Virus record (IMG/VR): IMGVR_UViG_3300025015_000011
Location: 1-64,000 of that record
Direction: 5' to 3' (one strand)
DNA from: a virus
Length of the DNA stretch: 64,000 nt
Shown: piece after piece, positions 13,980-56,623 of the stretch
How positions within the stretch are numbered: position 1 is the first letter of the stretch
How the letters are laid out: each line of letters begins with the position of its first letter
Notes under the pieces: generated by a model
What the model was told of the DNA's origin: nothing
Database searches by the model: none
What the model saw: only the letters and a program-made list of their open reading frames with translations
Position numbers and translations under genes: made by a program

Positions 13980-14033
13980 AGTTACATGATAACAAATTTC
14001 CTTTCTTTTGTAAAGAAAAATATTAGTTACTTT

Positions 14034-14041
14034 TATAAATA
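14034..14041 (+). promoter_or_regulatory. T4-type late promoter
   Basis: TATAAATA. Confidence 0.7.
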
Positions 14042-14049
14042 TTTATAAG

Positions 14050-14144: not shown

Positions 14145-14867
14145 ATGTCAAAACAATGCCCTTCCTCGAAACCAATCTTTTATGCTTACATCTATTTAAA
14201 TCCATTAAAACCTGGAAAATTTACTTATGGAGATTTTCTATCCTTTGAGTATGAACCATTTTATGTTGGAAAAGGTAGTGGTAATAGAATGTATAAACAC
14301 TTATATGAAACTTTAGCTAATACCGAAAATACCCATAAATTCTACACTATACAGAAGATTAAACAAAATGGGTTTGAACCAATAATTGTCAAGTTGAATT
14401 TTAATTTAAAAGAATGTAAAGCCCACACTTTTGAGAAGTTCTATATCAAGCTAATAGGTAGAAGAGATAAAGGTTTAGGACCTTTATCTAATCATACTGA
14501 TGGCGGAGAAGGAAGTTCTGGTCATATTGTTACAAAAGAAGAACGAAAAGCCAGAAGTGAACGAATGACAGGTAATAATAGTCCAACTAAGAGGCCTGAA
14601 GTTAGAAAGAAATTATGTGATTCAAAGAAAGGTGAAAAACATCCTATGTATGGTAAAAAAAGACCAGAACACAGTGAAAGGATGTGTGGTGAGAATAATC
14701 CTAATTTTGGTAAAAGAGGGTCTGAAAGTTCTAATTCTAAAAAAGTAATGGTTAATGGTAATGTGTATGGATGTTTTAAAGACGCTATTATAGCTGAGCA
14801 AATATCTGTATATTTCATTAATAAATATATTAAAGAAGAAAAAGATGGCTTTAAATACATCTTTTGA
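14145..14867 (+). CDS. GIY-YIG homing endonuclease with NUMOD3-like repeats
   Basis: YAYIY..FYVGKG...R...H; NHTDGGEG; HPMYGK and NPNFGK. Confidence 0.88.
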   Translation: MSKQCPSSKPIFYAYIYLNPLKPGKFTYGDFLSFEYEPFYVGKGSGNRMYKHLYETLANTENTHKFYTIQKIKQNGFEPIIVKLNFNLKECKAHTFEKFYIKLIGRRDKGLGPLSNHTDGGEGSSGHIVTKEERKARSERMTGNNSPTKRPEVRKKLCDSKKGEKHPMYGKKRPEHSERMCGENNPNFGKRGSESSNSKKVMVNGNVYGCFKDAIIAEQISVYFINKYIKEEKDGFKYIF

Positions 14868-14890: not shown

Positions 14891-15076
14891 TTACTTTTTC
14901 TTTATTTCTGAAGGAAGAACTTTGATTCTTTTTGTTTCATCCTTTGAAACAATCTCAATCATATTATTTTCCTTGTGAGAAACATACCATTCATTTCCTT
15001 CATAATCAACAAGTTCACCTTCTGTAAAATCATTCTTTTCCTCAAGTAGTAAAGAGATTTTATTAAGGATATCCAT
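14891..15076 (-). CDS. Putative head-internal protein
   Basis: Leader MDILNKISLLLEE. Confidence 0.7.
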   Translation of the reverse strand: MDILNKISLLLEEKNDFTEGELVDYEGNEWYVSHKENNMIEIVSKDETKRIKVLPSEIKKK

Positions 15077-15077
15077 A

Positions 15078-15821
15078 TTAACTCCTTATTAGTGTTTTTA
15101 ATCTTTCATGTGCTGCTTCAAATTCATTTGCTTTTGATTCTGCAAATTTACCAAATTTCTTTAAAGAATTAAATGCTGATTTGACACTATTCCACATCTT
15201 CTTAACTTTGAGTGTCATATGCTCAACAAATCCTTCTGTTACATCCTTAGATGCTTTGGGGAAGGAGAAAAGATTTCTCATCTTAATCACAGTAGAAATA
15301 GCATCATTATACTTATCTATTTCTTTCTTTGCTTCTTCAACTACATCTTCTGTTATCTTGCCCATTTCTAAAAGAGTTTCTAATATCTGAGTAGGGGTTT
15401 TATCTTTTACCTTTTCACTTGTTTTTGCAATTCTAACTTCTTTTTCTTGAATAGTAACTAAAACTTCTTTTTCGTCTGTTTTAAAAGCATATGCTTTATT
15501 TATTACCAAGCCCATCTTATCAAAAGCATTAGATGCCATTTGAAGATAACCATCAAGTTCTACTGCAATCTTAGCCTTTTCTTCTGCAAGGTCATTTTTT
15601 AAGGCTGTCAATTCAGACTGCTTCTCAAGTTGAGCATCTTTAATTCCTCTAAACTCTTCAGTTCTATTCCATATTTTGGTTATAGCTTCCTTAGCCTGAC
15701 CTGATATAGAAGGAATTACTTTATCCTTCTTAACACCTGTTGGTGCTTTACCTTCAGGAGAGAACTCAAATTTTTCTGCTTCTTCAAGGTAAGAATCAAT
15801 TTTATTAACTATCTTTGCCAT
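15078..15821 (-). CDS. Putative head-internal coiled-coil protein
   Basis: Leader KIVNKIDSYLEE; internal VTEG. Confidence 0.7.
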   Translation of the reverse strand: MAKIVNKIDSYLEEAEKFEFSPEGKAPTGVKKDKVIPSISGQAKEAITKIWNRTEEFRGIKDAQLEKQSELTALKNDLAEEKAKIAVELDGYLQMASNAFDKMGLVINKAYAFKTDEKEVLVTIQEKEVRIAKTSEKVKDKTPTQILETLLEMGKITEDVVEEAKKEIDKYNDAISTVIKMRNLFSFPKASKDVTEGFVEHMTLKVKKMWNSVKSAFNSLKKFGKFAESKANEFEAAHERLKTLIRS

Positions 15822-17000
15822 TTATTTTCCTTTTCCGTATAATAATTGAACTATTGTATTAAATTTAATAATATCTATATTTTTATAAATTGCTCTTCTT
15901 GAAGAAGTTTGCTTTCTAAATCCCATCAATAATATAATATATAATTGTTTATTTTTCCAAGAATTACTTATATGGCCCCAAATTCTTGGTTTAATATATT
16001 TCTCACCTAATTCAGAATCTGGTCTTTCTAATTCTTGATATTGATTTAAAATATTTATGATGTCTTTGTTATTATTCATCAATAATAAAAACAGCTTATC
16101 TATTAAAAATAGATATTGGTCAACAGAATTCAATCCCTTCAAATCTAAACTATATGTATTCTTTAAATTACCAGCTAATGATTCTACCTCAGGATATACA
16201 ACTTCAAATAATTCTCTTTTAAATTGTTGTTCAACATCTTTATTCTTATCCCACTTTTCTTTATTTGTTTTAGAAAATACAGGGTCAACTATCTTAACCA
16301 ATGGAACTTGTTCTAATTGAGTGTAAAGAACTACTCCTTCAATTTGAGTTCCTTTATAATCAGGATTTAAAATGTTTAAAAGATACTGAGTGAAATTATT
16401 AGATTTGAATTGCTCTAATCTTTCTTCATCAGACATTCTAAGAAATTCAGTTATTTTGTCAACTTTATCAGCATCTAACACACCAACATATATTATTGGT
16501 TGTCTTTCAGCTTCAAAATAATCAGCCCATTTCCATAATTCTTTGTAACTTACAGAAGTATGAAGTTTGCCTTTGATATTTGCAAAATAAACAACCCAAT
16601 TACCTTTGGGAGCTTCTGCATATTGAACTACATTCTCCTGGGCTTCCCCAAAAAATTCACCTGAGATTTCTGAGCCATTTGATAATTCAGAAAAGTTATT
16701 TGTTTTCTTTCTTAGAACGTCAAGTCTTTCAATCAATTTATCCCAAGAACCATTTACAATTCTCATTATCTTATCAATGGGTTGATTCTTAGACCAATAT
16801 TCTATTTTACCCTCTGCTGTTTTGACAACAGAAAATTTCTTACCATCCTGCTTCTCAACAATCACAACTGGTTGTTTGAATATTTCTTCTATTAATTCAG
16901 GACTTTCATTGTAGATAGTTTTTAAGTGAGGAATGAAAGTAATTGCATTGGATAGTAATTTAGAACCTTTAAGATTTTTTGTAAAGGTTTTAAAGTCCAT
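15822..17000 (-). CDS. ATP-dependent ligase-fold nucleotidyltransferase of unknown substrate
   Basis: Motif I EKQDG, III GEFF, IV EGVV, V VKIV. Confidence 0.7.
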   Translation of the reverse strand: MDFKTFTKNLKGSKLLSNAITFIPHLKTIYNESPELIEEIFKQPVVIVEKQDGKKFSVVKTAEGKIEYWSKNQPIDKIMRIVNGSWDKLIERLDVLRKKTNNFSELSNGSEISGEFFGEAQENVVQYAEAPKGNWVVYFANIKGKLHTSVSYKELWKWADYFEAERQPIIYVGVLDADKVDKITEFLRMSDEERLEQFKSNNFTQYLLNILNPDYKGTQIEGVVLYTQLEQVPLVKIVDPVFSKTNKEKWDKNKDVEQQFKRELFEVVYPEVESLAGNLKNTYSLDLKGLNSVDQYLFLIDKLFLLLMNNNKDIINILNQYQELERPDSELGEKYIKPRIWGHISNSWKNKQLYIILLMGFRKQTSSRRAIYKNIDIIKFNTIVQLLYGKGK

Positions 17001-17122
17001 TACTTCTTCTCTTCTTTTACTATTTCCTTCTTTTTCTTCTTACTAAATATCCTATCCCAACCATCTTTATACTCTTTTGTGGTTGGCATCTGCTTACATG
17101 GAAAAAGTTCTTCGGCGCTCAT
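17000..17122 (-). CDS. Small basic protein, 40 aa (not in ORF track)
   Basis: RBS AAGGAG; Y..GWDRIF.KK; TAATG coupling to the ligase-fold gene. Confidence 0.55.
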   Translation of the reverse strand: MSAEELFPCKQMPTTKEYKDGWDRIFSKKKKKEIVKEEKK

Positions 17123-17132
17123 TTACTCTCCT

Positions 17133-17852
17133 TTAATTTAAAATGTTACATACATTTGGTAAATCATTTGTTACTGTTATTCTTCTACCCCAAGCACCTT
17201 TTGATGGAGACTTACTGAATATATAAGGAAATCCATTTTCATCTTTTTCATTTGGTAAAAAATGAACATCTTTTCTTCTTTTTCTCAATCTAAAATAAAA
17301 TGAACATTGATTTGAATAAGTATCTATTGGAATGAAATTACCATTGAATATTAAAGTATTATCAGAAAATTCATGAGAAACATCCATTGGACCCACATAC
17401 ATATAATCTATGGGTCCACCAAGACCTTCATTACCAATCATTATTTTTTGAATATATCTTTTATTTATCTTATAAAAGGTATCAGGTAAACCATAATCAC
17501 CTTTTTTAAATCCTTTTGTTTGATACCAACTATCAGCTTCATTTAAAAAAGAACTAACTAATTTAGGCTGAAGTTTTGATAGACCAAACAGACCACCACC
17601 ACCAAGTGTGGGAGCTTCTTCGCCTTTTGCTGATATATTATATTTTTTATTTTTTGTTAATAATTGAATATCAGTGAGTGGCTCTTTATTATCTACTGTT
17701 AATTTTGTATATTTCTCAGCTCCAATAATCTTTTTTATTAAACAAAACTTACCTTTAATAGATATTGGATTATGAAGCGAAGCATAATCTTTTATGATTG
17801 AAATTATGCTTCGCTCTTGGCGCTCAGATTTCTCTTTTTTACTTAACCCCAA
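17133..17852 (-). CDS. PD-(D/E)XK restriction-endonuclease-like protein
   Basis: PLTDI...NISAK; own TTGTAA/TATAAT promoter near 17907-17933. Confidence 0.6.
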   Translation of the reverse strand: MGLSKKEKSERQERSIISIIKDYASLHNPISIKGKFCLIKKIIGAEKYTKLTVDNKEPLTDIQLLTKNKKYNISAKGEEAPTLGGGGLFGLSKLQPKLVSSFLNEADSWYQTKGFKKGDYGLPDTFYKINKRYIQKIMIGNEGLGGPIDYMYVGPMDVSHEFSDNTLIFNGNFIPIDTYSNQCSFYFRLRKRRKDVHFLPNEKDENGFPYIFSKSPSKGAWGRRITVTNDLPNVCNILN

Positions 17853-17936
17853 AATTAGAACATATTATCTCCAGAAAATCTTGACCCTTTTATTTCAATA
17901 TTATCATTATATAGAATTTTAAAACTATTACAAGGA

Positions 17937-18467
17937 CTATTTAAGGATAAAATATCTATCTTTACTCTTTAGAACTACTGCCTTACGATAGCCATTCTCT
18001 GTCAAGTATTGTTTAACTTTTTCATTTTTGACAGAATATCTTGAACCATCTCTCCTGATTTTAGTAGCCCCAATAAAATCTATTTCTTCTACTTCAAATA
18101 CGGGAAGACCTGACCTATACCCATCTGGTTCAATTCTTCTCTGAGTAGAACCAAGTCTTTCAGGTTTAGCTGCTATATCAGAAGTAGTTGTAGATTCTTC
18201 TGACACCTCAGTTGGTATTGTTCCCATACCTTTGCAATTTCTACAACCTTCACCATTGCAATTAGGGCAAATATCACCTTCATCATCTTCTTCATTGATA
18301 CCAAGATTACTTTTTACACTCCCTAAAGTTCTTTTGTACACTTCTTCATCTGGTAAGTTAGAACCAGATTTACGAATTGAGGTTTCTGCTTCTTGCCAGG
18401 ACTTCTCAACTTCTTGTGGTGATTTCTTTCCCTTTTTAGCCAAATCGTTTATCATGGGTAACGGCAT
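17937..18467 (-). CDS. Hypothetical late protein with DnaJ-like CxxCxGxG motifs
   Basis: CPNCNGEGCRNCKGMG; INE-E and SEESTTTSDIA. Confidence 0.7.
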   Translation of the reverse strand: MPLPMINDLAKKGKKSPQEVEKSWQEAETSIRKSGSNLPDEEVYKRTLGSVKSNLGINEEDDEGDICPNCNGEGCRNCKGMGTIPTEVSEESTTTSDIAAKPERLGSTQRRIEPDGYRSGLPVFEVEEIDFIGATKIRRDGSRYSVKNEKVKQYLTENGYRKAVVLKSKDRYFILK

Positions 18468-18787
18468 TATTTTCTCCTTTTAGGTTTTTCTATTATCTCT
18501 TCTATTTCATCAATGGTAATGAATGAACAAAAAGCCCCAGGATAAGGGTCTAATACTCTATTTATATTTAACATCCACACATCAGATTCCTCATTATATT
18601 CTGGTATACCATCTATAGCCCATAATCCTCCATCTTCAACCCATTTTCTTGGTATCTCTTCACTACCATAAGATAATGAAGGCACTGAATCTTTCTTTAA
18701 TCTAATAAAAGTTCCAGATTTCAAATTTTCTGGTTTAATTTCAACACTCTCTTTTAAAAATATATCAATCTTTTCTAAAATAGTCAT
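18467..18787 (-). CDS. Putative head-internal protein (likely start ATG 18787)
   Basis: Leader MTILEKIDIFLKE; RBS AAGGA. Confidence 0.7.
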   Translation of the reverse strand: MTILEKIDIFLKESVEIKPENLKSGTFIRLKKDSVPSLSYGSEEIPRKWVEDGGLWAIDGIPEYNEESDVWMLNINRVLDPYPGAFCSFITIDEIEEIIEKPKRRK

Positions 18788-18795
18788 TTTATTCC

Positions 18796-19029
18796 TTAAC
18801 TGTTTAATGTTTCTATTTTCCAACCCTCTGCTGCAGGGTCTGACCATACTTGCATTGGTATAACTGAAGGATTTGTTACTATTTTAATACCAGGCATTGA
18901 TTTTTGTAAATCATAATGATATTGTGGATTTTTATTATCAGTATAAATGAATTTTTCTTTATTGGGTTTAGTTACCACTAAAGTTTTATCTTCATTCAGA
19001 ACTGAATTTATTTTATCTAGAATGTCCAT
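18796..19029 (-). CDS. Putative head-internal protein
   Basis: Leader MDILDKINSVLNE. Confidence 0.7.
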   Translation of the reverse strand: MDILDKINSVLNEDKTLVVTKPNKEKFIYTDNKNPQYHYDLQKSMPGIKIVTNPSVIPMQVWSDPAAEGWKIETLNS

Positions 19030-19188
19030 TCATTTTCCATTCTTAAATTTCTTTCTCTTAACTCTCCTACCTTTCTTCAATTCAAAATACTTCTCTTGTG
19101 CTTTGGTTGATTTTGGCATTTCACAAATCTCACCAAACAATCTTTCTATTCCTTGAATTTCTGCTGGAGTAAATCGAGATTTGCTAAT
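19030..19188 (-). CDS. Small basic protein with apparent ATT start (not in ORF track)
   Basis: AAGGAG, 8 nt, ATT; 52 codons exactly filling the gap. Confidence 0.45.
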   Translation of the reverse strand: MSKSRFTPAEIQGIERLFGEICEMPKSTKAQEKYFELKKGRRVKRKKFKNGK

Positions 19189-19200
19189 AAGAATTTCTCC

Positions 19201-19479
19201 TTAATAAGAAAATTTCTTAACTACTTTATAAAGTTCAGTAACTACATAATCACTTGGTTCGACTGATGATACTAATTCTTTTAATGATTCTATTATCTTT
19301 TTAGAATCTTTATTCTTGCAACCTTTACATTCTAAACTCTTAAGGACTGTTTTGACTTCTTCATTATCAAGATTTTCAGACATGAATAAAAGAGCTTTTA
19401 ATGTTTTATGACGTTTAGTCCCAGCAGTGGATGTAATATCTTCTTTTAAAAATAGATCTATTTTAGAAAGTATATCCAT
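19201..19479 (-). CDS. Putative head-internal protein
   Basis: Leader MDILSKIDLFLKE. Confidence 0.7.
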   Translation of the reverse strand: MDILSKIDLFLKEDITSTAGTKRHKTLKALLFMSENLDNEEVKTVLKSLECKGCKNKDSKKIIESLKELVSSVEPSDYVVTELYKVVKKFSY

Positions 19480-19481
19480 CT

Positions 19482-20213
19482 TTAACTCTCCTTTATACTA
19501 TTAAATATTTCTTTCCATATATGTTGAAATTCCTCTATTTGACTATCATTTGAAAATACTGCATATAACCTACCAAGACCTTCCATGGTAAATTCTGACC
19601 CACCATAATTGGCAGATACCTTAACTACATTTCCTTCATCATCATAAACATTAAATTCATCAAGGCCGCCAGTTTTTATCTTATCTACAATAGAATTTAT
19701 ATTAGTTAGAAACTGTTCATTATCATGTTTTGGAATATTAAATGCTCCAAATGCTGAAGTAGGCTCACCATTTAAAGTAGTATAAATGAAAAATCTAAAT
19801 GTTTCTATATCATCAACATACTGAATTAAAATACCTTCTGTTAAACCAATCTTCATAGAAGTTTCAAACACTTCACCTGAGATAGGAGACATCATTTCTT
19901 CATCTTCAGTCAATAATGTTTTATCTATATCATGTTCTTCTCTAAGAAGTAGCCATGCTAATGTCATTTTTAAAAAAAATCTATCTCCAACAAAAACTCT
20001 TATCTTTCTAATCATTCTATCAAGTAAAGTATATGCTTTCTTGTCCTCAATAGATTTAATTGGTTTCTTAGTTCTTTTGCCTTTTTCATCAATAATTCCC
20101 AAGTCATAAGCTTTCCAGCGAGTGAACGGTGTAATAAATTTTTTGGCCATCGCATATACGATAAAAAAATCTATTAATCTACCTTCAGTTAGAAGATTAT
20201 TATTACGACCCAT
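19482..20213 (-). CDS. Conserved T4-like hypothetical late protein
   Basis: PF..W.AY.LGIIDEKG...AYT.L.R motif recalled from T4-like phages; LLTE sites. Confidence 0.7.
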   Translation of the reverse strand: MGRNNNLLTEGRLIDFFIVYAMAKKFITPFTRWKAYDLGIIDEKGKRTKKPIKSIEDKKAYTLLDRMIRKIRVFVGDRFFLKMTLAWLLLREEHDIDKTLLTEDEEMMSPISGEVFETSMKIGLTEGILIQYVDDIETFRFFIYTTLNGEPTSAFGAFNIPKHDNEQFLTNINSIVDKIKTGGLDEFNVYDDEGNVVKVSANYGGSEFTMEGLGRLYAVFSNDSQIEEFQHIWKEIFNSIKES

Positions 20214-20484
20214 AAATCTTAACTCCTTTAGGTCTTGGCACTGCTCTCCAATCTTTTGATACTTTATCTAACATCTTGAAAAATTCATTTGGTATTGTGG
20301 CACTGAAAGATTTAGATAAATTTCTGATAAGTTGAAGTAGTTTTTCTTTACCCCCAGCTAACCCCACCCATCTGTGAAGTTTCTTTTCATCTTTCTTTTC
20401 AACTATATCTTTTATAGTAGATTCAATAGATTCTTTGCTATAAGAAAGCCCTTCAAATAATATGAAATCTTTAAAATCCATCAT
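20203..20484 (-). CDS. Putative head-internal protein
   Basis: Leader MDFKDFILFE. Confidence 0.7.
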   Translation of the reverse strand: MMDFKDFILFEGLSYSKESIESTIKDIVEKKDEKKLHRWVGLAGGKEKLLQLIRNLSKSFSATIPNEFFKMLDKVSKDWRAVPRPKGVKIYGS

Positions 20485-20879
20485 TCCATATCTCGCTTTC
20501 TTTTAAAGGCTTCAATATCTCCTTCTGGTTCATGGTCTTGGTCATATAATCTATCTTCGGCCCATTCAATAAACTGAGCATCTTTTAAAAGCCAATTATT
20601 AATTAAATCTTCATTTTCAAACATAAACTTTCTAAATGCAGATTCTTCAACATACTTTTCTTCTTCAATTTCAGATGGAGAGAAATTTCTTTTAACCCAA
20701 ACCATATAATCATCAAAATGTTCTTCAAGAATAAAATCATTTAAAAATAAACCATATTCTTGCATTTTAACAGATATGAATTTTTCTCTATATTCATCCA
20801 TATCACTACCTATTTTTTTAAATAGTGAACTAACATCTTCTTTTAAAAATGACTTGAATGATTTAATCATATTTTCCAT
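20481..20879 (-). CDS. Putative head-internal protein
   Basis: Leader IKSFKSFLKE; internal FRKFMFE. Confidence 0.7.
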   Translation of the reverse strand: MENMIKSFKSFLKEDVSSLFKKIGSDMDEYREKFISVKMQEYGLFLNDFILEEHFDDYMVWVKRNFSPSEIEEEKYVEESAFRKFMFENEDLINNWLLKDAQFIEWAEDRLYDQDHEPEGDIEAFKRKRDME

Positions 20880-21085
20880 CCTTCTTCTCTTGCTTCTTCT
20901 ATAGAATCAAAATCTAATTGTTCAATATAGATAGCGCCCTTTTTAGCTTGCAAAAGAAGTGAAATACCTCCTGAAGAATTGGTTGCTACTTTACAATACA
21001 CTTTATTCCCTTTAGCAAAAGATTTATGAATATCAGTTCTTGGTATCCACATACTAATATCTTTTGGGAGAATTATAGTTTTCAT
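20867..21085 (-). CDS. Hypothetical protein
   Basis: Coupled ORF in the operon. Confidence 0.6.
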   Translation of the reverse strand: MKTIILPKDISMWIPRTDIHKSFAKGNKVYCKVATNSSGGISLLLQAKKGAIYIEQLDFDSIEEAREEGWKI

Positions 21086-21393
21086 TAATCTTTATATTCT
21101 ATTATTAAATCTACTATATGTGTACCAGTTGGTATATCTTCAACACTTATCAATCTATCTCCAAAAATTTTCTGTGCTATTATTTTTACAGCTTTTAAAT
21201 GTTTTTCGGTGAAATTTCCACCAGAAAATCCTTGTGTCCCTAGTCCCCAGTATTTCTTTCTTTTACCACCTTTTATTTTATCTGAAAAAGTGGATATATA
21301 TTTTATGTTATTACTTTTGAGATAATCAGTAATTTCTTTAGTTGTATCAACTGCTTCATTCAAAACACTATCAATCTTTTCTAATATATTCAT
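21085..21393 (-). CDS. Putative head-internal protein
   Basis: Leader MNILEKIDSVLNE. Confidence 0.7.
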   Translation of the reverse strand: MNILEKIDSVLNEAVDTTKEITDYLKSNNIKYISTFSDKIKGGKRKKYWGLGTQGFSGGNFTEKHLKAVKIIAQKIFGDRLISVEDIPTGTHIVDLIIEYKD

Positions 21394-21923
21394 ATCATCA
21401 AGCCTTTCAGTTTATTATAATATTTCCAAATATTTTTACTAGTACTTTTTCTAAAACTATTCTCATCATCTTTTCTAATATAATCTCTTATATTAGTAGC
21501 ATCCATGTATTTCTTTGTTATGACTAATTCAATATCTAAATCATTAGTCATTTTAATGTAATCTTCTCTTCTATCCTGTCCTGATACAAAATACTTCATA
21601 TTATAACCTTGAGCTTTTAATGTTTCATACACTTCAGGGATATATCCATTTGGTAAAGGTTCATTTAAAATTACTATATTATCAAGACCTTGAAGTGATT
21701 TAACTACCAGTTCTCTTTGTATAGTAAAAGGTAATGGATTTTTCTCTTTATCTTGAGAAGTCACATTACCTTTTACTATACCAATTATAATTTTATATTG
21801 TGGAAATTTTAAGCGAACATCTTTAATTACTTGAGAATGTCCAAGATGCCATGGTTGAAATCTACCAATAAAAACTACAACTGGTATCTCAGATTCTTCT
21901 TTAAGAAAAGACTTGAAAGACAT
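21390..21923 (-). CDS. HIGH-motif nucleotidyltransferase (cytidylyltransferase/NMNAT-like) with leader
   Basis: GRFQPWHLGH, KNPL, GQDR, DATNIR; leader MSFKSFLKE. Confidence 0.85.
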   Translation of the reverse strand: MSFKSFLKEESEIPVVVFIGRFQPWHLGHSQVIKDVRLKFPQYKIIIGIVKGNVTSQDKEKNPLPFTIQRELVVKSLQGLDNIVILNEPLPNGYIPEVYETLKAQGYNMKYFVSGQDRREDYIKMTNDLDIELVITKKYMDATNIRDYIRKDDENSFRKSTSKNIWKYYNKLKGLMI

Positions 21924-21924
21924 T

Positions 21925-22584
21925 TTAATCCTGAAATACAGGAGGATGTTTTAGTATGTCTCCATCGCGATCGATGCCACTTTTCCAAATTGCTTTCTTG
22001 GCATTAAACTTTCCATTCATCCAATAGCCAGATTCAAAAACCCCACCATTGAACTCACCATTGATGAATCTACCATTTCTAAATGTACCATTCATAAACT
22101 GCCCATCAATGAAAGAGCCAGATTCAAAAAGGCCATTTTTAAAAGTTCCAGTAAATTCATTACCTTTCCAAACTCCACTTAACCAAGTGCCTTTAAATGA
22201 CCCTTCTAAGAAAGTGCCTTTCTTCCATGTACCTGACCAAATATCTCCTTTAACAAAAGTACCATCCTGCCACTCAATGTTTTTTGCTACACCTGAGAAT
22301 TTACCATTTTTGAAAATGCCTGTTTCCCAGACAGATTCTTTAAAATGGCCATCAATCCAAGTGCCTTGATACCAAACAATTTTACCATTCTTAATACCAA
22401 TAACAGCATCTTCAAAGGATGCCTTCATTAACCAATCAAACTTAGTACGGATGGTATCTTCAGCGAGACCATCCCGGAGTTCTCTTATTCCGGGTATGGT
22501 CACACGAAGGACTTCTACAGGAGCTTTGTCAGCTACAGATTGGATTGGCTCTTCTTCTTTAAGAAAAAAAGCTTTAAAATTCAT
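21925..22584 (-). CDS. [FW]xxGx pentapeptide-repeat protein with leader
   Basis: Long run of FKNGL-FESGS-FIDGQ-type repeats; leader MNFKAFFLKE. Confidence 0.75.
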   Translation of the reverse strand: MNFKAFFLKEEEPIQSVADKAPVEVLRVTIPGIRELRDGLAEDTIRTKFDWLMKASFEDAVIGIKNGKIVWYQGTWIDGHFKESVWETGIFKNGKFSGVAKNIEWQDGTFVKGDIWSGTWKKGTFLEGSFKGTWLSGVWKGNEFTGTFKNGLFESGSFIDGQFMNGTFRNGRFINGEFNGGVFESGYWMNGKFNAKKAIWKSGIDRDGDILKHPPVFQD

Positions 22585-22596
22585 TTTGAATTATCC

Positions 22597-22977
22597 TTAG
22601 TAGGTTTCGTCATCTGTGTCTGTTACTTCTATTTCTTCATCCTCATCACCAGTAGGAGCATCTAAATCATCAGTTTCACCATCTTCTTCTTTTGCGGCTT
22701 CAATTACATTCTGAATGTAATTGAGAACTCCTTCTTTCATCTCATCTGTAAGTTCAGATTCAAAAGCAGCAACCTTTTCAGCAAAAGTAGGCTCTACATC
22801 CTCTTCATCACCTTCAAGGCCTTCATCATCACCTGAAAATTCCATTTCAGTATCATCTGCAGGAATATCATTTATCACATCTTCATCTTCCTTTACAACC
22901 TTTTTCTTTACAGTCTTCTTAGTCTTTACACCTTCGTTTAATATGCTCTCAATCCTATCCATTAATTCTTTGCTCAT
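22597..22977 (-). CDS. Highly acidic prohead-core-like protein
   Basis: Leader LMDRIESILNE; D/E-rich. Confidence 0.65.
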   Translation of the reverse strand: MSKELMDRIESILNEGVKTKKTVKKKVVKEDEDVINDIPADDTEMEFSGDDEGLEGDEEDVEPTFAEKVAAFESELTDEMKEGVLNYIQNVIEAAKEEDGETDDLDAPTGDEDEEIEVTDTDDETY

Positions 22978-22989
22978 TTTGTTCTCCTC

Positions 22990-23391
22990 TTATTTTATTC
23001 TATATTTTTTTAGTACTAAATCTAATTGCTTTTGCCAAATACTTTTACCTTCAAACTTCTCTTCATTTATATCATTAAACCCCTCACTAAGAAGAAATTT
23101 AAGAAAATTCTCTTTTTCTTCATTGTTCAGGTCATCTAAAAGAATATCATAAAACTTGTGTTTGTCAAAGTTTTTACGTAAAATAAAAATTTTATTGAAG
23201 ATTCCATGAAGTCTTTCTAAAGAAGTTTCTTTCAGATATGATGTTATTTGGCGCTTGAGTGTTTTGAGTAAGTATTCATCTTCTTTATACTCACATTCAA
23301 GTCCTTTATAGAATTCTTTGAAATTACTAGTGATAAAGACTCCTTTAGTTACATTCCTATTATAAGTATTTATATCAGAAATCCTTGACAA
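22990..23391 (-). CDS. Conserved T4-like hypothetical protein (start possibly ATC at 23334)
   Basis: LKR...Y.....LE.L.....I.IL...F pattern; AAGGAG at 23345-23340. Confidence 0.65.
   Translation of the reverse strand: MSRISDINTYNRNVTKGVFITSNFKEFYKGLECEYKEDEYLLKTLKRQITSYLKETSLERLHGIFNKIFILRKNFDKHKFYDILLDDLNNEEKENFLKFLLSEGFNDINEEKFEGKSIWQKQLDLVLKKYRIK
23367..23374 (-). promoter_or_regulatory. Late promoter heading the leader-bearing operon
   Basis: TATAAATA at the strand switch, back-to-back with a plus-strand TTGACA at 23385. Confidence 0.7.
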
Positions 23392-39904: not shown

Positions 39905-40846
39905 ATGGCAATTTCAAACAAGCAAGATATTGGTGTAATAGTAGGAAGATTCCAAGTCCCAAAACTAACATCTGCCCACAGAAGATTATTATCTGATGTT
40001 ATTAGAGACCATGATAAAGTTATAATATTCCTAGGTGTTGCTCCCACTTTAGGTACTAAACATAACCCTCTTGATTATCCCACCAGGGTTAAAATGTTAA
40101 AAGAAACAATAAATGTTACCTATCATAGGTCAACACAGGATAGTAAAACAATTTTAATTGCACCATTAATGGATAATCCATCTGATTTAGTTTGGAGCGA
40201 AAATCTTGATTCTTTTGTAAGATCTCATTTTTCAACTGGAAGTGTTTGTTTATATGGTGGTAGAGATTCTTTCATAAAATCTTATAAAACTAAAACATTC
40301 TCAACAAAGGAAATGTCTTTTCAATCTCCAGAATCAGGAACTGAATTAAGAAAAATAGCAGGGAAAGAAATTTTAAATTCAGATGACTTTAGATCTGGTA
40401 TTATTTATGCAATTCAAAATAGGTTTCCTGTAACTTATCCTACAGTTGACTTGGCTGTATTAAAAGATAATAAATATGTTTTAATGGGTAAAAAGAAAAA
40501 TGTTGATGGTTGGTGTTTCCCTGGTGGATTTGCTGACCCGCATGATGAATCTTATGAAACCGCTGCTATCAGAGAATTTCATGAAGAAATAGGTGGAGTA
40601 GAAATAGGTCTTGATTTAGAATATATTTCTAGTCATATAGTTGATGATTGGAGATACAAAGACGAAGAAAAAATCAAAACAATTCTTTTTGCTACTGATT
40701 ATATTTTTGGTGACCCAACAGTCAAAGAAGAATTGATTGATTTACAGTGGGTCAATATGACCAATACTAAGCCAGAAGATATAGCTAAAGCACACAAGCC
40801 TCTATATAAATCTTTAATTAAATATGTAAATGGGAGGATAAAGTAA
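39905..40846 (+). CDS. nadM: Bifunctional NMN adenylyltransferase / Nudix hydrolase (NadM-Nudix, NatV-like)
   Basis: VGRFQ...H, NPL...R, SGT.LR; Nudix box GGF....E....AA.REF.EE. Confidence 0.9.
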   Translation: MAISNKQDIGVIVGRFQVPKLTSAHRRLLSDVIRDHDKVIIFLGVAPTLGTKHNPLDYPTRVKMLKETINVTYHRSTQDSKTILIAPLMDNPSDLVWSENLDSFVRSHFSTGSVCLYGGRDSFIKSYKTKTFSTKEMSFQSPESGTELRKIAGKEILNSDDFRSGIIYAIQNRFPVTYPTVDLAVLKDNKYVLMGKKKNVDGWCFPGGFADPHDESYETAAIREFHEEIGGVEIGLDLEYISSHIVDDWRYKDEEKIKTILFATDYIFGDPTVKEELIDLQWVNMTNTKPEDIAKAHKPLYKSLIKYVNGRIK

Positions 40847-42235
40847 ATGGAAAGACCAGGAAGTAATATATGTAAAATGGGAGACAGTTATAAATTTTCT
40901 CATGCAGTCCAATATCCTCCAGGAACAGAAAAGGTCTTCTCTTACCTTGAGTCAAGAGGTGGGTTATTTGATAACACTGTTTTCTTTGGGTTACAAATCC
41001 TTCTTGAAAGGTTAGAAGGCCAAGTAGTAACTGCTGAAAAAATAGATGATGCTGAAAAGATGGTCAATGCTCACATAGGTCCTGGAATTTTTAATAGGTC
41101 TGGTTGGGAATATATACTCAATAAACACAATGGATATCTTCCAGTTATTATAAAGGCTGTTTCTGAAGGCACACAAGTCCCAGTAAGTAATGCTCTTATG
41201 ATAGTCGAGAACACAGACCCAAATTGTTTTTGGCTTACTAATTATCTTGAAACATATTTGTCTCAAGTGTGGTATCCATGTACCGTAGCAACACTTTCAA
41301 GAGAAATTAAAAAGCTGATAAATAGATTTCTTGAAACTACAGGAGACACAGCCGGTATAAATTTCAAGCTTCATGATTTCGGATATAGAGGTACAAGCTC
41401 TTTTGAAAGTGCTGGAATAGGTGGTTGTGCTCACCTTCTGAATTTTATGGGAACTGATACAGTAGCAGCAATTGAATTTACTCAGTATTATTATGAGGCA
41501 GATATGCCAGGGTTCAGTATCCCAGCAGCAGAACACTCAACCATAACATCCTGGGGCAGGGAAAATGAACTGGATGCTTTCAAGAATATGCTTGAAACAT
41601 ATCCAACAGGCCTTGTAGCTGTAGTATCTGATAGCTATGATATTTATGAAGCCTGCAAAACCCTTTGGGGTGAAGAACTAAAAGATATGGTCCTTCAAAG
41701 GGATGGGTATTTAATTATAAGACCAGATTCTGGCGAACCAACTGAAGTTATACCAAAGATTCTTAACATATTAGGTAAGGCTTTTGGGTATGAAGTGAAT
41801 TCCAAAGGTTATAAAGTCCTCAATCCTAAAGTTCGTGTTATCCAAGGGGATGGTGTTAATTATAATTCTATTGAAAATATCCTCACTCTAATGCAATATG
41901 ATGGATGGAGCACTGATAACATAGCTTTTGGTATGGGTGGTGCCCTGCTTCAAGGTATAAATAGAGATACTCAAAAGTTTGCTTTTAAATGTTCTTCTGT
42001 TACAATTAATGGCGAAGAAAGAGATGTTTATAAACAGCCAATAGATTCTCCTTGGAAGAAGTCTAAAGCTGGTAGACTTATGCTTGTTACGGATTTAGAT
42101 GGTGAATATAAAACAATTAAAGAATCTGAATATGACCCATCTTGTATGATAGATAAGATGAATGTTGTATTTTTTAATGGTAAGATAGTTAAAAAGTATA
42201 CTTTCGATGAAGTGATATGGAACGCAAAGATTTAA
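40847..42235 (+). CDS. nadV: Nicotinamide phosphoribosyltransferase
   Basis: DSYK.SH, LHDFGYRG, GTDT, AAEHS, DSYD, RPDSG, QGDG, FGMGG. Confidence 0.95.
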   Translation: MERPGSNICKMGDSYKFSHAVQYPPGTEKVFSYLESRGGLFDNTVFFGLQILLERLEGQVVTAEKIDDAEKMVNAHIGPGIFNRSGWEYILNKHNGYLPVIIKAVSEGTQVPVSNALMIVENTDPNCFWLTNYLETYLSQVWYPCTVATLSREIKKLINRFLETTGDTAGINFKLHDFGYRGTSSFESAGIGGCAHLLNFMGTDTVAAIEFTQYYYEADMPGFSIPAAEHSTITSWGRENELDAFKNMLETYPTGLVAVVSDSYDIYEACKTLWGEELKDMVLQRDGYLIIRPDSGEPTEVIPKILNILGKAFGYEVNSKGYKVLNPKVRVIQGDGVNYNSIENILTLMQYDGWSTDNIAFGMGGALLQGINRDTQKFAFKCSSVTINGEERDVYKQPIDSPWKKSKAGRLMLVTDLDGEYKTIKESEYDPSCMIDKMNVVFFNGKIVKKYTFDEVIWNAKI

Positions 42236-55351: not shown

Positions 55352-56623
55352 ATGCAAAATATCCCAGCCATCCTTTCTGAAATAGCATCAACCAGCTCTA
55401 AAATTGAAAAAGTAGCCCTTATTAAAAAAAATAAGTCCATGAATATGGAGTTAATTTTTTCACATGCTTATAATCCTTTCATAACCTTTGGAACCACAAA
55501 AATTGAAATGGATGACTTTTCATTCAATGATAATAGAGTTATTGATGAAAGGTGGTTTGATGCTATGATACAGATGTTAAACAAACTTTCAAAGAGAGAA
55601 TATACTGGAAACAGAGCTCGTGATATAATCAGGGATTTTATGGAATCTGGACCTGAGGCCTGGGCTCGTTTGATTTATAATATTCTCAATAAGGATTTGA
55701 GAATTGGAGCCAGTGAAAAGTCTATTAATAAAGTTTATGATGGCCTCCTTCCTGAGGAATTTGTTCAGCTTGCTCATTTGTTTGAAGAAGGCAAAGATGA
55801 AAAAAGGCTCAAGTTCCCTGTTTATTGTGATATTAAATTTGATGGTCTTAGGGGCAAAGTTGAACTTGATGAAAAGGGAGAATATGTAGTAATTTCCAGA
55901 AATGGAAAGATGTACAGAAATTATATTACCATACAAAAAGAACTGAAAATACTTTCTGATTATCTCAAGAAGCCAAGCATTATGTGGGATGGTGAGATAA
56001 CAATGGGTTCTCTTCAGGATATCCTCCGGACTGCACAAAGAAAAGAAGATGGAATTGAACTTGCAAAGGATGCTGTTTATAACATCTTTGATATAGTTGA
56101 CTTGGACTTGAAACAGAAAGATAGATTGACATTTATCCTCAATGATGTTAAAAATGCAATTGAAAAGTTGAACTTGAAACACCTCAATGTCATTGAAGGA
56201 AAGTATCTAAATACAGTTGAAGAAGTAAAGTCTTTCTTTAATGAAGCTCTTAAACAAGGACTTGAAGGCATCATGGTAAAAAATCTTGATGCTCATTATC
56301 AGTTCAAAAAGGGATATAATTGGATGAAGCTCAAGGAAGAAGATACAATTGACCTTGAGATAGTAGGATTTGAAGAAGGTAAGAAAGGTACCAAAAATGA
56401 AGGCAAGCTTGGTGCTTTCATTGGTAGACTTCCAAATGGTGGGACTGTCAATGTTGGAGGTGGTATCAAGGATGATGAACGAGAAGAGTATTGGAATAAC
56501 AGAAAAAAGATTCTTGGAGATATAATGGAAGTCAAGTTTCAGAAGAAGACAAGGGATGGTTCTTTACAGCACCCCAATTTTGTAAGATTCAGGCATGATA
56601 AAAGGAGGAATGAAAATGTTTAA
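55352..56623 (+). CDS. gp30: ATP-dependent DNA ligase
   Basis: KDLRIG, KFDGLR, SRNG, DGEI, FD, EGIMVK, WMKLK, OB fold. Confidence 0.93.
   Translation: MQNIPAILSEIASTSSKIEKVALIKKNKSMNMELIFSHAYNPFITFGTTKIEMDDFSFNDNRVIDERWFDAMIQMLNKLSKREYTGNRARDIIRDFMESGPEAWARLIYNILNKDLRIGASEKSINKVYDGLLPEEFVQLAHLFEEGKDEKRLKFPVYCDIKFDGLRGKVELDEKGEYVVISRNGKMYRNYITIQKELKILSDYLKKPSIMWDGEITMGSLQDILRTAQRKEDGIELAKDAVYNIFDIVDLDLKQKDRLTFILNDVKNAIEKLNLKHLNVIEGKYLNTVEEVKSFFNEALKQGLEGIMVKNLDAHYQFKKGYNWMKLKEEDTIDLEIVGFEEGKKGTKNEGKLGAFIGRLPNGGTVNVGGGIKDDEREEYWNNRKKILGDIMEVKFQKKTRDGSLQHPNFVRFRHDKRRNENV

Follow-up and report, generated by a model that had tools for sequence, protein, structure and literature searches.

In the DNA analysed here, 64,000 nucleotides (nt) from the start of IMG/VR virus record IMGVR_UViG_3300025015_000011 (the window), a minus-strand array of 19 tightly packed open reading frames (ORFs) was found at 14891-23391, in which two types of short N-terminal leader recur on otherwise unrelated proteins. 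We consider it probable (about 0.7) that both leaders represent the T4 capsid targeting sequence (CTS) in the form it takes in this lineage, and that the proteins behind them are packaged cargo of the T4 type. Because the leaders resemble the signal by which T4 loads proteins into its head and which is then cut off, the proteins bearing them would probably be carried in the capsid together with the DNA. The internal-protein principle of T4 is already in print (PMC3012670, PMC9026906, PMC12373910); the array supports, in silico, its presence in a very distant lineage, enlarged and with two leader types.

The window is the start of one contig of 166,689 bp (166.7 kb; 32% G+C) from an uncultured T4-like myovirus, and the groundwater metagenomes ERZ27254728 and ERZ909576 were the source of near-identical contigs. 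Pfam and PHROGs searches placed the head genes at genome positions 116971-120649, at a distance of 95 kb from the array. They encode an S77 (gp21) prohead protease (119969-120649), a scaffold of the T4 type and the gp23 capsid protein, and their profile scores were 101 bits for PF03420, 63 bits for PF25623 and 315 bits for PF07068 (PHROGs 207, 237 and 138). The capsid protein was 34-37% identical to those of the nearest sequenced phages, 37% being the maximum in the phage collection searched. A megablast search with the array DNA against 50,697 phage records gave no match, and a search of IMG/VR with an RNase H pattern recovered no relative. Genes for RNase H, a GIY-YIG endonuclease and UvsY flank the array inside the window.

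Leader peptides of the array

Type 1 leaders follow the pattern M-D-I-L-x-K-I-x-x-x-L-x-E and were found on seven ORFs, and type 2 leaders, with the pattern M-x-F-K-x-F-h-x-E, were found on four. On rereading, every leader start listed in the initial annotation of this DNA proved to be real. Its figure of about 12 leader-bearing proteins resolved into 11 clear cases (7 type 1 and 4 type 2) and two partial type 2 leaders among the 19 ORFs, the second partial one (NFKEFYKGLE, 22990-23331) being newly seen. Apart from two gaps, of 84 and 60 nt, the ORFs were no more than 12 nt apart.

Regular-expression matches at N-termini throughout the genome numbered 9 for type 1 and 11 for type 2, compared with 0.21 and 0.04, respectively, in shuffled proteins. 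When all six frames of the genome were scanned with position-specific scoring matrices (PSSMs), every score of 19 or more directly followed a start codon, which was ATG except for the GTG at genome position 124054, with ranges of 23-33 for type 1 and 19-24 for type 2. The highest type 1 score, 32.6, belonged to the 77-amino-acid (aa) protein at 18796-19029. The sole other type 2 score above 17 was an antisense match at 56257; it had no start codon and was rejected as chance. A chance origin of the leaders is excluded. In the same scan no leader was found on genes of the plus-strand early and replication cluster. The initial annotation, which had not noticed leaders on plus-strand genes, had named an equal frequency of the motif in early genes beforehand as one of the findings that would speak against packaged cargo.

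BLASTP comparison among the array proteins showed no similarity outside the leader, with alignments limited to 15-35 aa, which bears out the earlier description of the bodies as unrelated. One exception extends beyond the array: the repeat domain of the protein at 21925-22584 is shared with two leader-bearing proteins of 491 and 573 aa near the head genes. The leader copies differ in their synonymous codons and the DNA upstream of them is unrelated, indicating that selection acts on the leader peptide.

Promoters and predicted timing

The uvsY gene upstream of the array is divergent, so transcription of the minus strand must start in the spacer between the two. At the head of the array, an exact 17-mer late promoter, TATAAATACTTATAATA, was found on the minus strand at 23358-23374. 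The 166.7 kb contain three copies of this 17-mer: one precedes the capsid gene, one the scaffold gene and one the array. The TATAAATA that had been reported at 23374-23367 was thus confirmed as a part of this longer promoter. It also precedes the capsid, scaffold, protease, portal and sheath genes, at distances of 27-57 nt. Its extended form TATAAATAYTT was counted 27 times where shuffles gave 3.5, and most copies lie 13-68 nt before structural genes. The TATAAATA at 18566 has no extended consensus and was not counted as a promoter.

The early promoter consensus of this phage, which is sharp genome-wide (e.g. at window positions 681, 28244 and 60284), consists of TTGACA, a spacer of 16-17 nt often ending in TG, and TATAAT, 57-63 nt before the start codon. 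No consensus early promoter was observed in the intergenic spaces of the array, and terminator-like and generic sigma-70-like sites were no commoner in the array than in shuffles. Judged by promoter sequence, the array is predicted to be expressed late, together with the head genes, which agrees with the late operon proposed earlier. Palindromic, back-to-back late promoters, TATAAATATTTATA, were also seen between divergent genes at window positions 14033-14048 and at genome positions 91946-91959 and 133353-133366.

Comparison with T4 and other packaged proteins

In T4 (NC_000866), the internal proteins IPII and IPIII begin with MKTYQEFIAE and IPI with MKTFKEFTST..ITE, while Alt starts with MELITE, gp22 with MLKEQLIAE and gp24 with MAKINELLRE. 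Residues 4 and 7 of the T4 CTS serve targeting, and residues 8 and 10 serve processing (PMC9026906). In the type 2 leader (M-D-F-K-S-F-I-T-E), F3, F6, [ILV]7 and E9 correspond to Y4, F7, I8 and E10 of T4, with equal spacing and a shift by one residue. The best type 2 PSSM match in the 24.5-kb head locus of T4 was AFGSFLTE, residues 58-65 of gp23, which ends at the cleavage site; T4 gp23 is cut at FLTE-65, with a propeptide of 65 residues (PMC5694885). The capsid protein encoded in the present genome has ARYITE directly followed by AGST, aligned with the cleavage position of T4 gp23. The earlier view that the leaders are of the capsid-targeting kind is therefore supported by the shared CTS residues, the link to head genes, the prohead protease and the shared late promoter.

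The system resembles the T4 internal proteins in having a leader of about 10 aa on unrelated bodies, in its aromatic residues spaced three apart and followed by hydrophobic-x-Glu, in the presence of a gp21-family protease and a gp22-type scaffold in the genome, and in late expression, which is here predicted from the promoter. Hot spots of internal-protein genes with a shared leader have already been described in T-even phages (PMC12373910, PMC9026906), where these Ip genes occupy variable hot spots and belong to at least 10 families (PMC12373910). Unlike in T4, two leader classes replace each other on homologous bodies here. The operon has 11-13 tagged genes and the genome about two dozen, compared with 3-4 in T4; the bodies show no similarity to any T4 Ip, and some are predicted enzymes.

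T4 Alt, a packaged and injected ADP-ribosyltransferase (ART), has the short propeptide MELITE, which is cut at ITE-6 and ends in I-x-E, and the start of the type 1 leader (MDIL..) is similar to it. A parallel to Alt might be seen in seven leader-tagged paralogues of this genome, of which a model best matched ART folds; unlike Alt, their match to these folds is weak (Z of 5.7 or less), they have no sequence family in common with it, and they are located outside the window. The ejection proteins of phiKZ and SPN3US are also comparable, since many proteins are held inside the head and a gp21-related protease cuts after x-x-Glu (PMC5694885). Most of their propeptides exceed 100 aa, and their motif is [S/A/G]-x-E, whereas the motif here is [I/L]-x-E.

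Leaders near the head genes

About two dozen genes of the whole genome were found to be tagged, about 11 of them in addition to the array and next to the head genes. Three small leader-bearing ORFs lie between the S77 protease and the scaffold (genome 119066-119972): an ORF of 92 aa with a GTG start and the leader KLIDRIDKILNE, one of 104 aa with MDILNELNNFLEE, and one of 65 aa with MIEEIENHLWE. An ORF of 87 aa at genome positions 130756-131019 also bears a leader. The other carriers near the head and tail genes are a P-loop kinase-like protein, the two large repeat proteins and the seven ART-like paralogues mentioned above.

The seven paralogues (about 190 aa, phrog_11975) are encoded at genome positions 123470-127981 and 103064-103669 (L001 and L002). 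The AlphaFold model of one of them had a predicted local distance difference test (pLDDT) value of 76, and its type 2 leader extended from the N-terminus without structure (pLDDT below 50). A wide VIA fold search with the paralogue returned mostly ART folds at Z of 2.2-5.7, a weak match. Foldseek found no PDB match with E of 0.001 or better, and a profile search of solved structures yielded chance-level matches only, with no Pfam or PDB sequence match. The fold search points weakly to an ADP-ribosyltransferase-like nature of these seven proteins.

A profile built from the paralogues retrieved 6326 representatives at 50% identity. Among the 141 top members, the first h-x-E ended at residue 9 or 10 in 89, and the 10-mer consensus of the family, MKTFKQ[FY][IL]xE, bridges the T4 CTS and the type 2 leader and is near the start of T4 IPI. 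One member carried a type 1 leader instead. Going by these CTS-like N-termini, the family might constitute a large and so far unstudied source of proteins likely to be carried in virions. Giant multi-domain proteins are also included in it, e.g. P0004, with 2645 aa and five matched stretches.

Leaders in related genomes

The initial annotation had proposed that cargo variability be compared in related genomes, and such variability was indeed found. In three IMG/VR contigs whose capsid proteins are 56-68% identical to the one studied here, both leader types occur on other bodies around the head genes. In one of these relatives (L006), four ORFs between the protease and the scaffold start with MDILTEINSVLNE, MKKLLEEINELLEE and similar sequences, and other leader starts in IMG/VR relatives were MNFKxFxLED or MKFKQFITEE.

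A related 2.8-kb fragment (L012) encodes a homologue of the nucleotidyltransferase at 21390-21923 (40% identical) that has kept a type 2 leader, MFSFKQFLMED, a DUF3175 protein tagged with type 1, and a 47%-identical homologue of the gp61.1-family protein at 19482-20213. A homologue of the protein at 19201-19479, with 45% identity, has the type 2 leader MTFKNYLTEE and not type 1, and the alignment of the two proteins begins after the leaders. Since relatives keep the leaders on other bodies and a homologous body has swapped its leader type, the two leaders behave as exchangeable modules. Among the leader-tagged genes of this fragment, a PLD-family protein (PF13091; L012 positions 898-1434) with a signal-peptide-like N-terminus was also noticed. 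Distant gp61.1-type loci from JGI metagenomes and IMG/VR (L014 and L016-L019) had no such leaders, implying that the exact motifs are lineage-specific.

Proposed mechanism and alternative explanations

If the leaders act like those of T4, the array would be transcribed late from its single strong head-type promoter, and the leader-bearing products would bind the scaffolding core during prohead assembly. The gp21-type S77 protease would then cut the leader off after [I/L/V]-x-Glu, and the mature bodies would stay in the head after it has filled with DNA and would reach the host together with that DNA. The cargo would comprise small acidic or basic proteins, the NMN adenylyltransferase (NMNAT)-like nucleotidyltransferase and perhaps the RNA ligase. 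We infer core binding, cleavage, retention, ejection and any counter-defence role; a complex prediction for the scaffold and the 102-aa type 1 protein had a score of 0.00, which is evidence neither for nor against binding.

Several observations weigh against packaged cargo of the T4 type. No leader is present on six of the 19 ORFs, one of which is of the gp61.1 family, a neighbour of the primase gene in T4-type genomes, and the partial leader of the RNA ligase, MDFKTFTKN, lacks the Glu. The type 1 leader resembles T4 sequences only in its L-x-E end and, loosely, in the Alt (MELITE) and gp24 (MAKINELLRE) propeptides, where the PSSM score, 8.3, was equalled by a random site. Inside the late transcript the first ORF offers none of the canonical start codons (ATG, GTG or TTG), for which reason an AUC start may be used. 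A weak sigma-70-like site, TTGTAA-16-TATAAT (17933-17906), lies inside the 84-nt gap at 17853-17936 and could give a separate, earlier transcript of the last five genes; it departs from the pattern of the phage early promoters described above. Space in the head is limited and would have to be shared by about two dozen cargo species.

A different fate after targeting was considered, in which the leaders do lead to the prohead core but most of the products are auxiliary core or scaffold parts, like T4 gp67 and gp68, that are degraded and expelled at maturation. Type 1 leaders on small acidic ORFs between the protease and the scaffold, where core proteins are expected, would fit this, as would the scaffold's own start, MIKFLEKNKVVLNE, and the several small acidic proteins of the array (22597, 20481, 18467 and 14891). 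We nevertheless regard it as unlikely. The array holds folded enzyme domains and basic proteins and is separated from the head module by the 95 kb given above; the lack of relationship among its bodies and their exchangeability between relatives are more in keeping with accessory cargo than with structural parts; and the CTS proteins of T4 (the internal proteins and Alt) are retained in the head and ejected (PMC5694885). Recognition by a partner unconnected with the capsid, i.e. a modifying enzyme, a chaperone or a localisation factor, appeared still less probable. The genome does encode radical-SAM enzymes elsewhere, but none near either leader cluster, and the leaders end in a protease motif, match the T4 CTS residues and the gp23 cleavage site, cluster around head genes both here and in relatives, and follow a head-type late promoter. 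It is hardly credible that the shared N-termini are a by-product of DNA repeats, such as recombination cassettes or translation-initiation regions, or of AT-rich chance. In a genome of 32% G+C the palindrome TTTAAA (Phe-Lys) does recur by chance, and there is the one antisense match at 56257. The differing synonymous codons and unrelated upstream DNA, the 9-11 matches against 0.04-0.2 in shuffles and the restriction of high PSSM scores to positions right after start codons all argue against it.

Under the preferred interpretation as T4-type packaged cargo, the capsid-targeting signal would be conserved far beyond the T-even phages. The leader-type swap on homologous bodies shows that the tag is a portable module. 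If the leaders are packaging signals, they could let the injected protein set be read directly from metagenomic sequence, and about two dozen genes would become candidates for the first acts of infection (anti-restriction, NAD or tRNA repair, ADP-ribosylation). A bolder version, to which we give somewhat less than even odds, is that an enzyme kit is delivered before phage expression, comprising the NMNAT-like nucleotidyltransferase, the RNA ligase, the P-loop kinase-like protein, the ART-like paralogues and small inhibitor-like proteins, and that the injected set is predictable from two interchangeable tags.

Genes of the array

All array genes are on the minus strand and are described from upstream to downstream. 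The first ORF (22990-23391; 113-133 aa) has the type-2-like NFKEFYKGLE at its probable start, and its start codon is uncertain; the TTG at 23391 is upstream of the late promoter. At 23329-23374 the late promoter was seen to be followed by a minimal ATG-TAA, the ribosome-binding site AAAGGAG and then ATC ACT AGT AAT TTC AAA. The second gene (22597-22977) encodes a very acidic protein of 126 aa with an isoelectric point (pI) of 4.1, the type 1 leader MSKELMDRIESILNE (start 22977) and no Pfam or PHROG family. It is followed by the repeat protein of 219 aa (21925-22584) with the type 2 leader MNFKAFFLKEE (start 22584), for which a homologue search returned only the protein itself and none of similar length.

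The next protein (21390-21923; 177 aa), with the type 2 leader MSFKSFLKEE (start 21923), reached 33.5 bits against PF01467 (cut-off 21) and belongs to the cytidylyltransferase superfamily. NMNAT models gave 24-34 bits, below their cut-offs of 127-449. It was predicted to be an HxGH nucleotidyltransferase of the cytidylyltransferase fold, closest to NMN adenylyltransferases. A putative NAD salvage pair was also noticed at window positions 39905-42235, consisting of an NMNAT-Nudix-like protein (sub-threshold matches) and then a Nampt/NAPRT-type phosphoribosyltransferase (NF006629, 613 bits); the leader-bearing nucleotidyltransferase would be a second NMNAT-like gene beside it.

Downstream are the 102-aa protein with the type 1 leader MNILEKIDSVLNE (21085-21393, start 21393), which has no family, and a leaderless ORF of 72 aa (20867-21085). 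An acidic protein of 129-132 aa (20481-20879) has the type 2 leader M(ENM)IKSFKSFLKE with starts at 20879 or 20870, and the gene call in the public contig starts at Met4. The basic protein of 93 aa after it (20203-20484) begins with the type 2 leader MMDFKDFILFE (start 20484). The leaderless protein of 243 aa at 19482-20213 contains a gp61.1-family N-terminal domain (phrog_2086, E of 6e-16), and its tblastn matches were gp61.1-annotated genes of RB16 and other T4-like phages.

Three type 1 leaders come next: MDILSKIDLFLKE on a 92-aa protein (19201-19479, start 19479), MDILDKINSVLNE on the 77-aa protein (18796-19029, start 19029) and MTILEKIDIFLKE on an acidic protein of 106 aa (18467-18787), whose start at 18787 is that of the public gene call. 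Between the first two lies a small, basic, leaderless ORF of 36-52 aa (19030-19140) with an uncertain start, where, as in the first array ORF, GGAG is followed by a non-canonical codon, here ATT. The leaderless protein of 176 aa (17937-18467) had no family above threshold; it contains two CxxCxGxG motifs side by side, of the kind seen in DnaJ zinc fingers. After the 84-nt gap comes a leaderless ORF of 239 aa with a TTG start (17133-17852). A mini-ORF, ATG TTC TAA, with its own GGAG (17850-17870) ends 2 nt before this TTG, and the two could be translationally coupled. A leaderless ORF of 40 aa (17000-17122) follows.

The 392-aa protein at 15822-17000 carries the partial type 2 leader MDFKTFTKN (start 17000), which is like the MKTFKEFTST of T4 IPI, in which the cleavage site lies further downstream. 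It scored 32.9 bits against PF09414 (cut-off 27), matched the RNA ligase family phrog_548 and retains the motif-I lysine in EKQDG at residues 49-53, and no match was found among NCBIfam models; from these features its fold is predicted to be that of an Rnl2-type RNA ligase. Apart from this enzyme, the nucleotidyltransferase and the gp61.1-family protein, the bodies of the array matched no family, and their pI values extended from 4.1-4.9 in the acidic proteins up to 9.6 in the basic ones. The array ends with a 247-aa protein that has the type 1 leader MAKIVNKIDSYLEE (15078-15821, start 15821) and no family, and a 61-aa protein with the type 1 leader MDILNKISLLLEE (14891-15076, start 15076). 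The next gene is that of the GIY-YIG endonuclease (14145-14867), which is convergent with the array.

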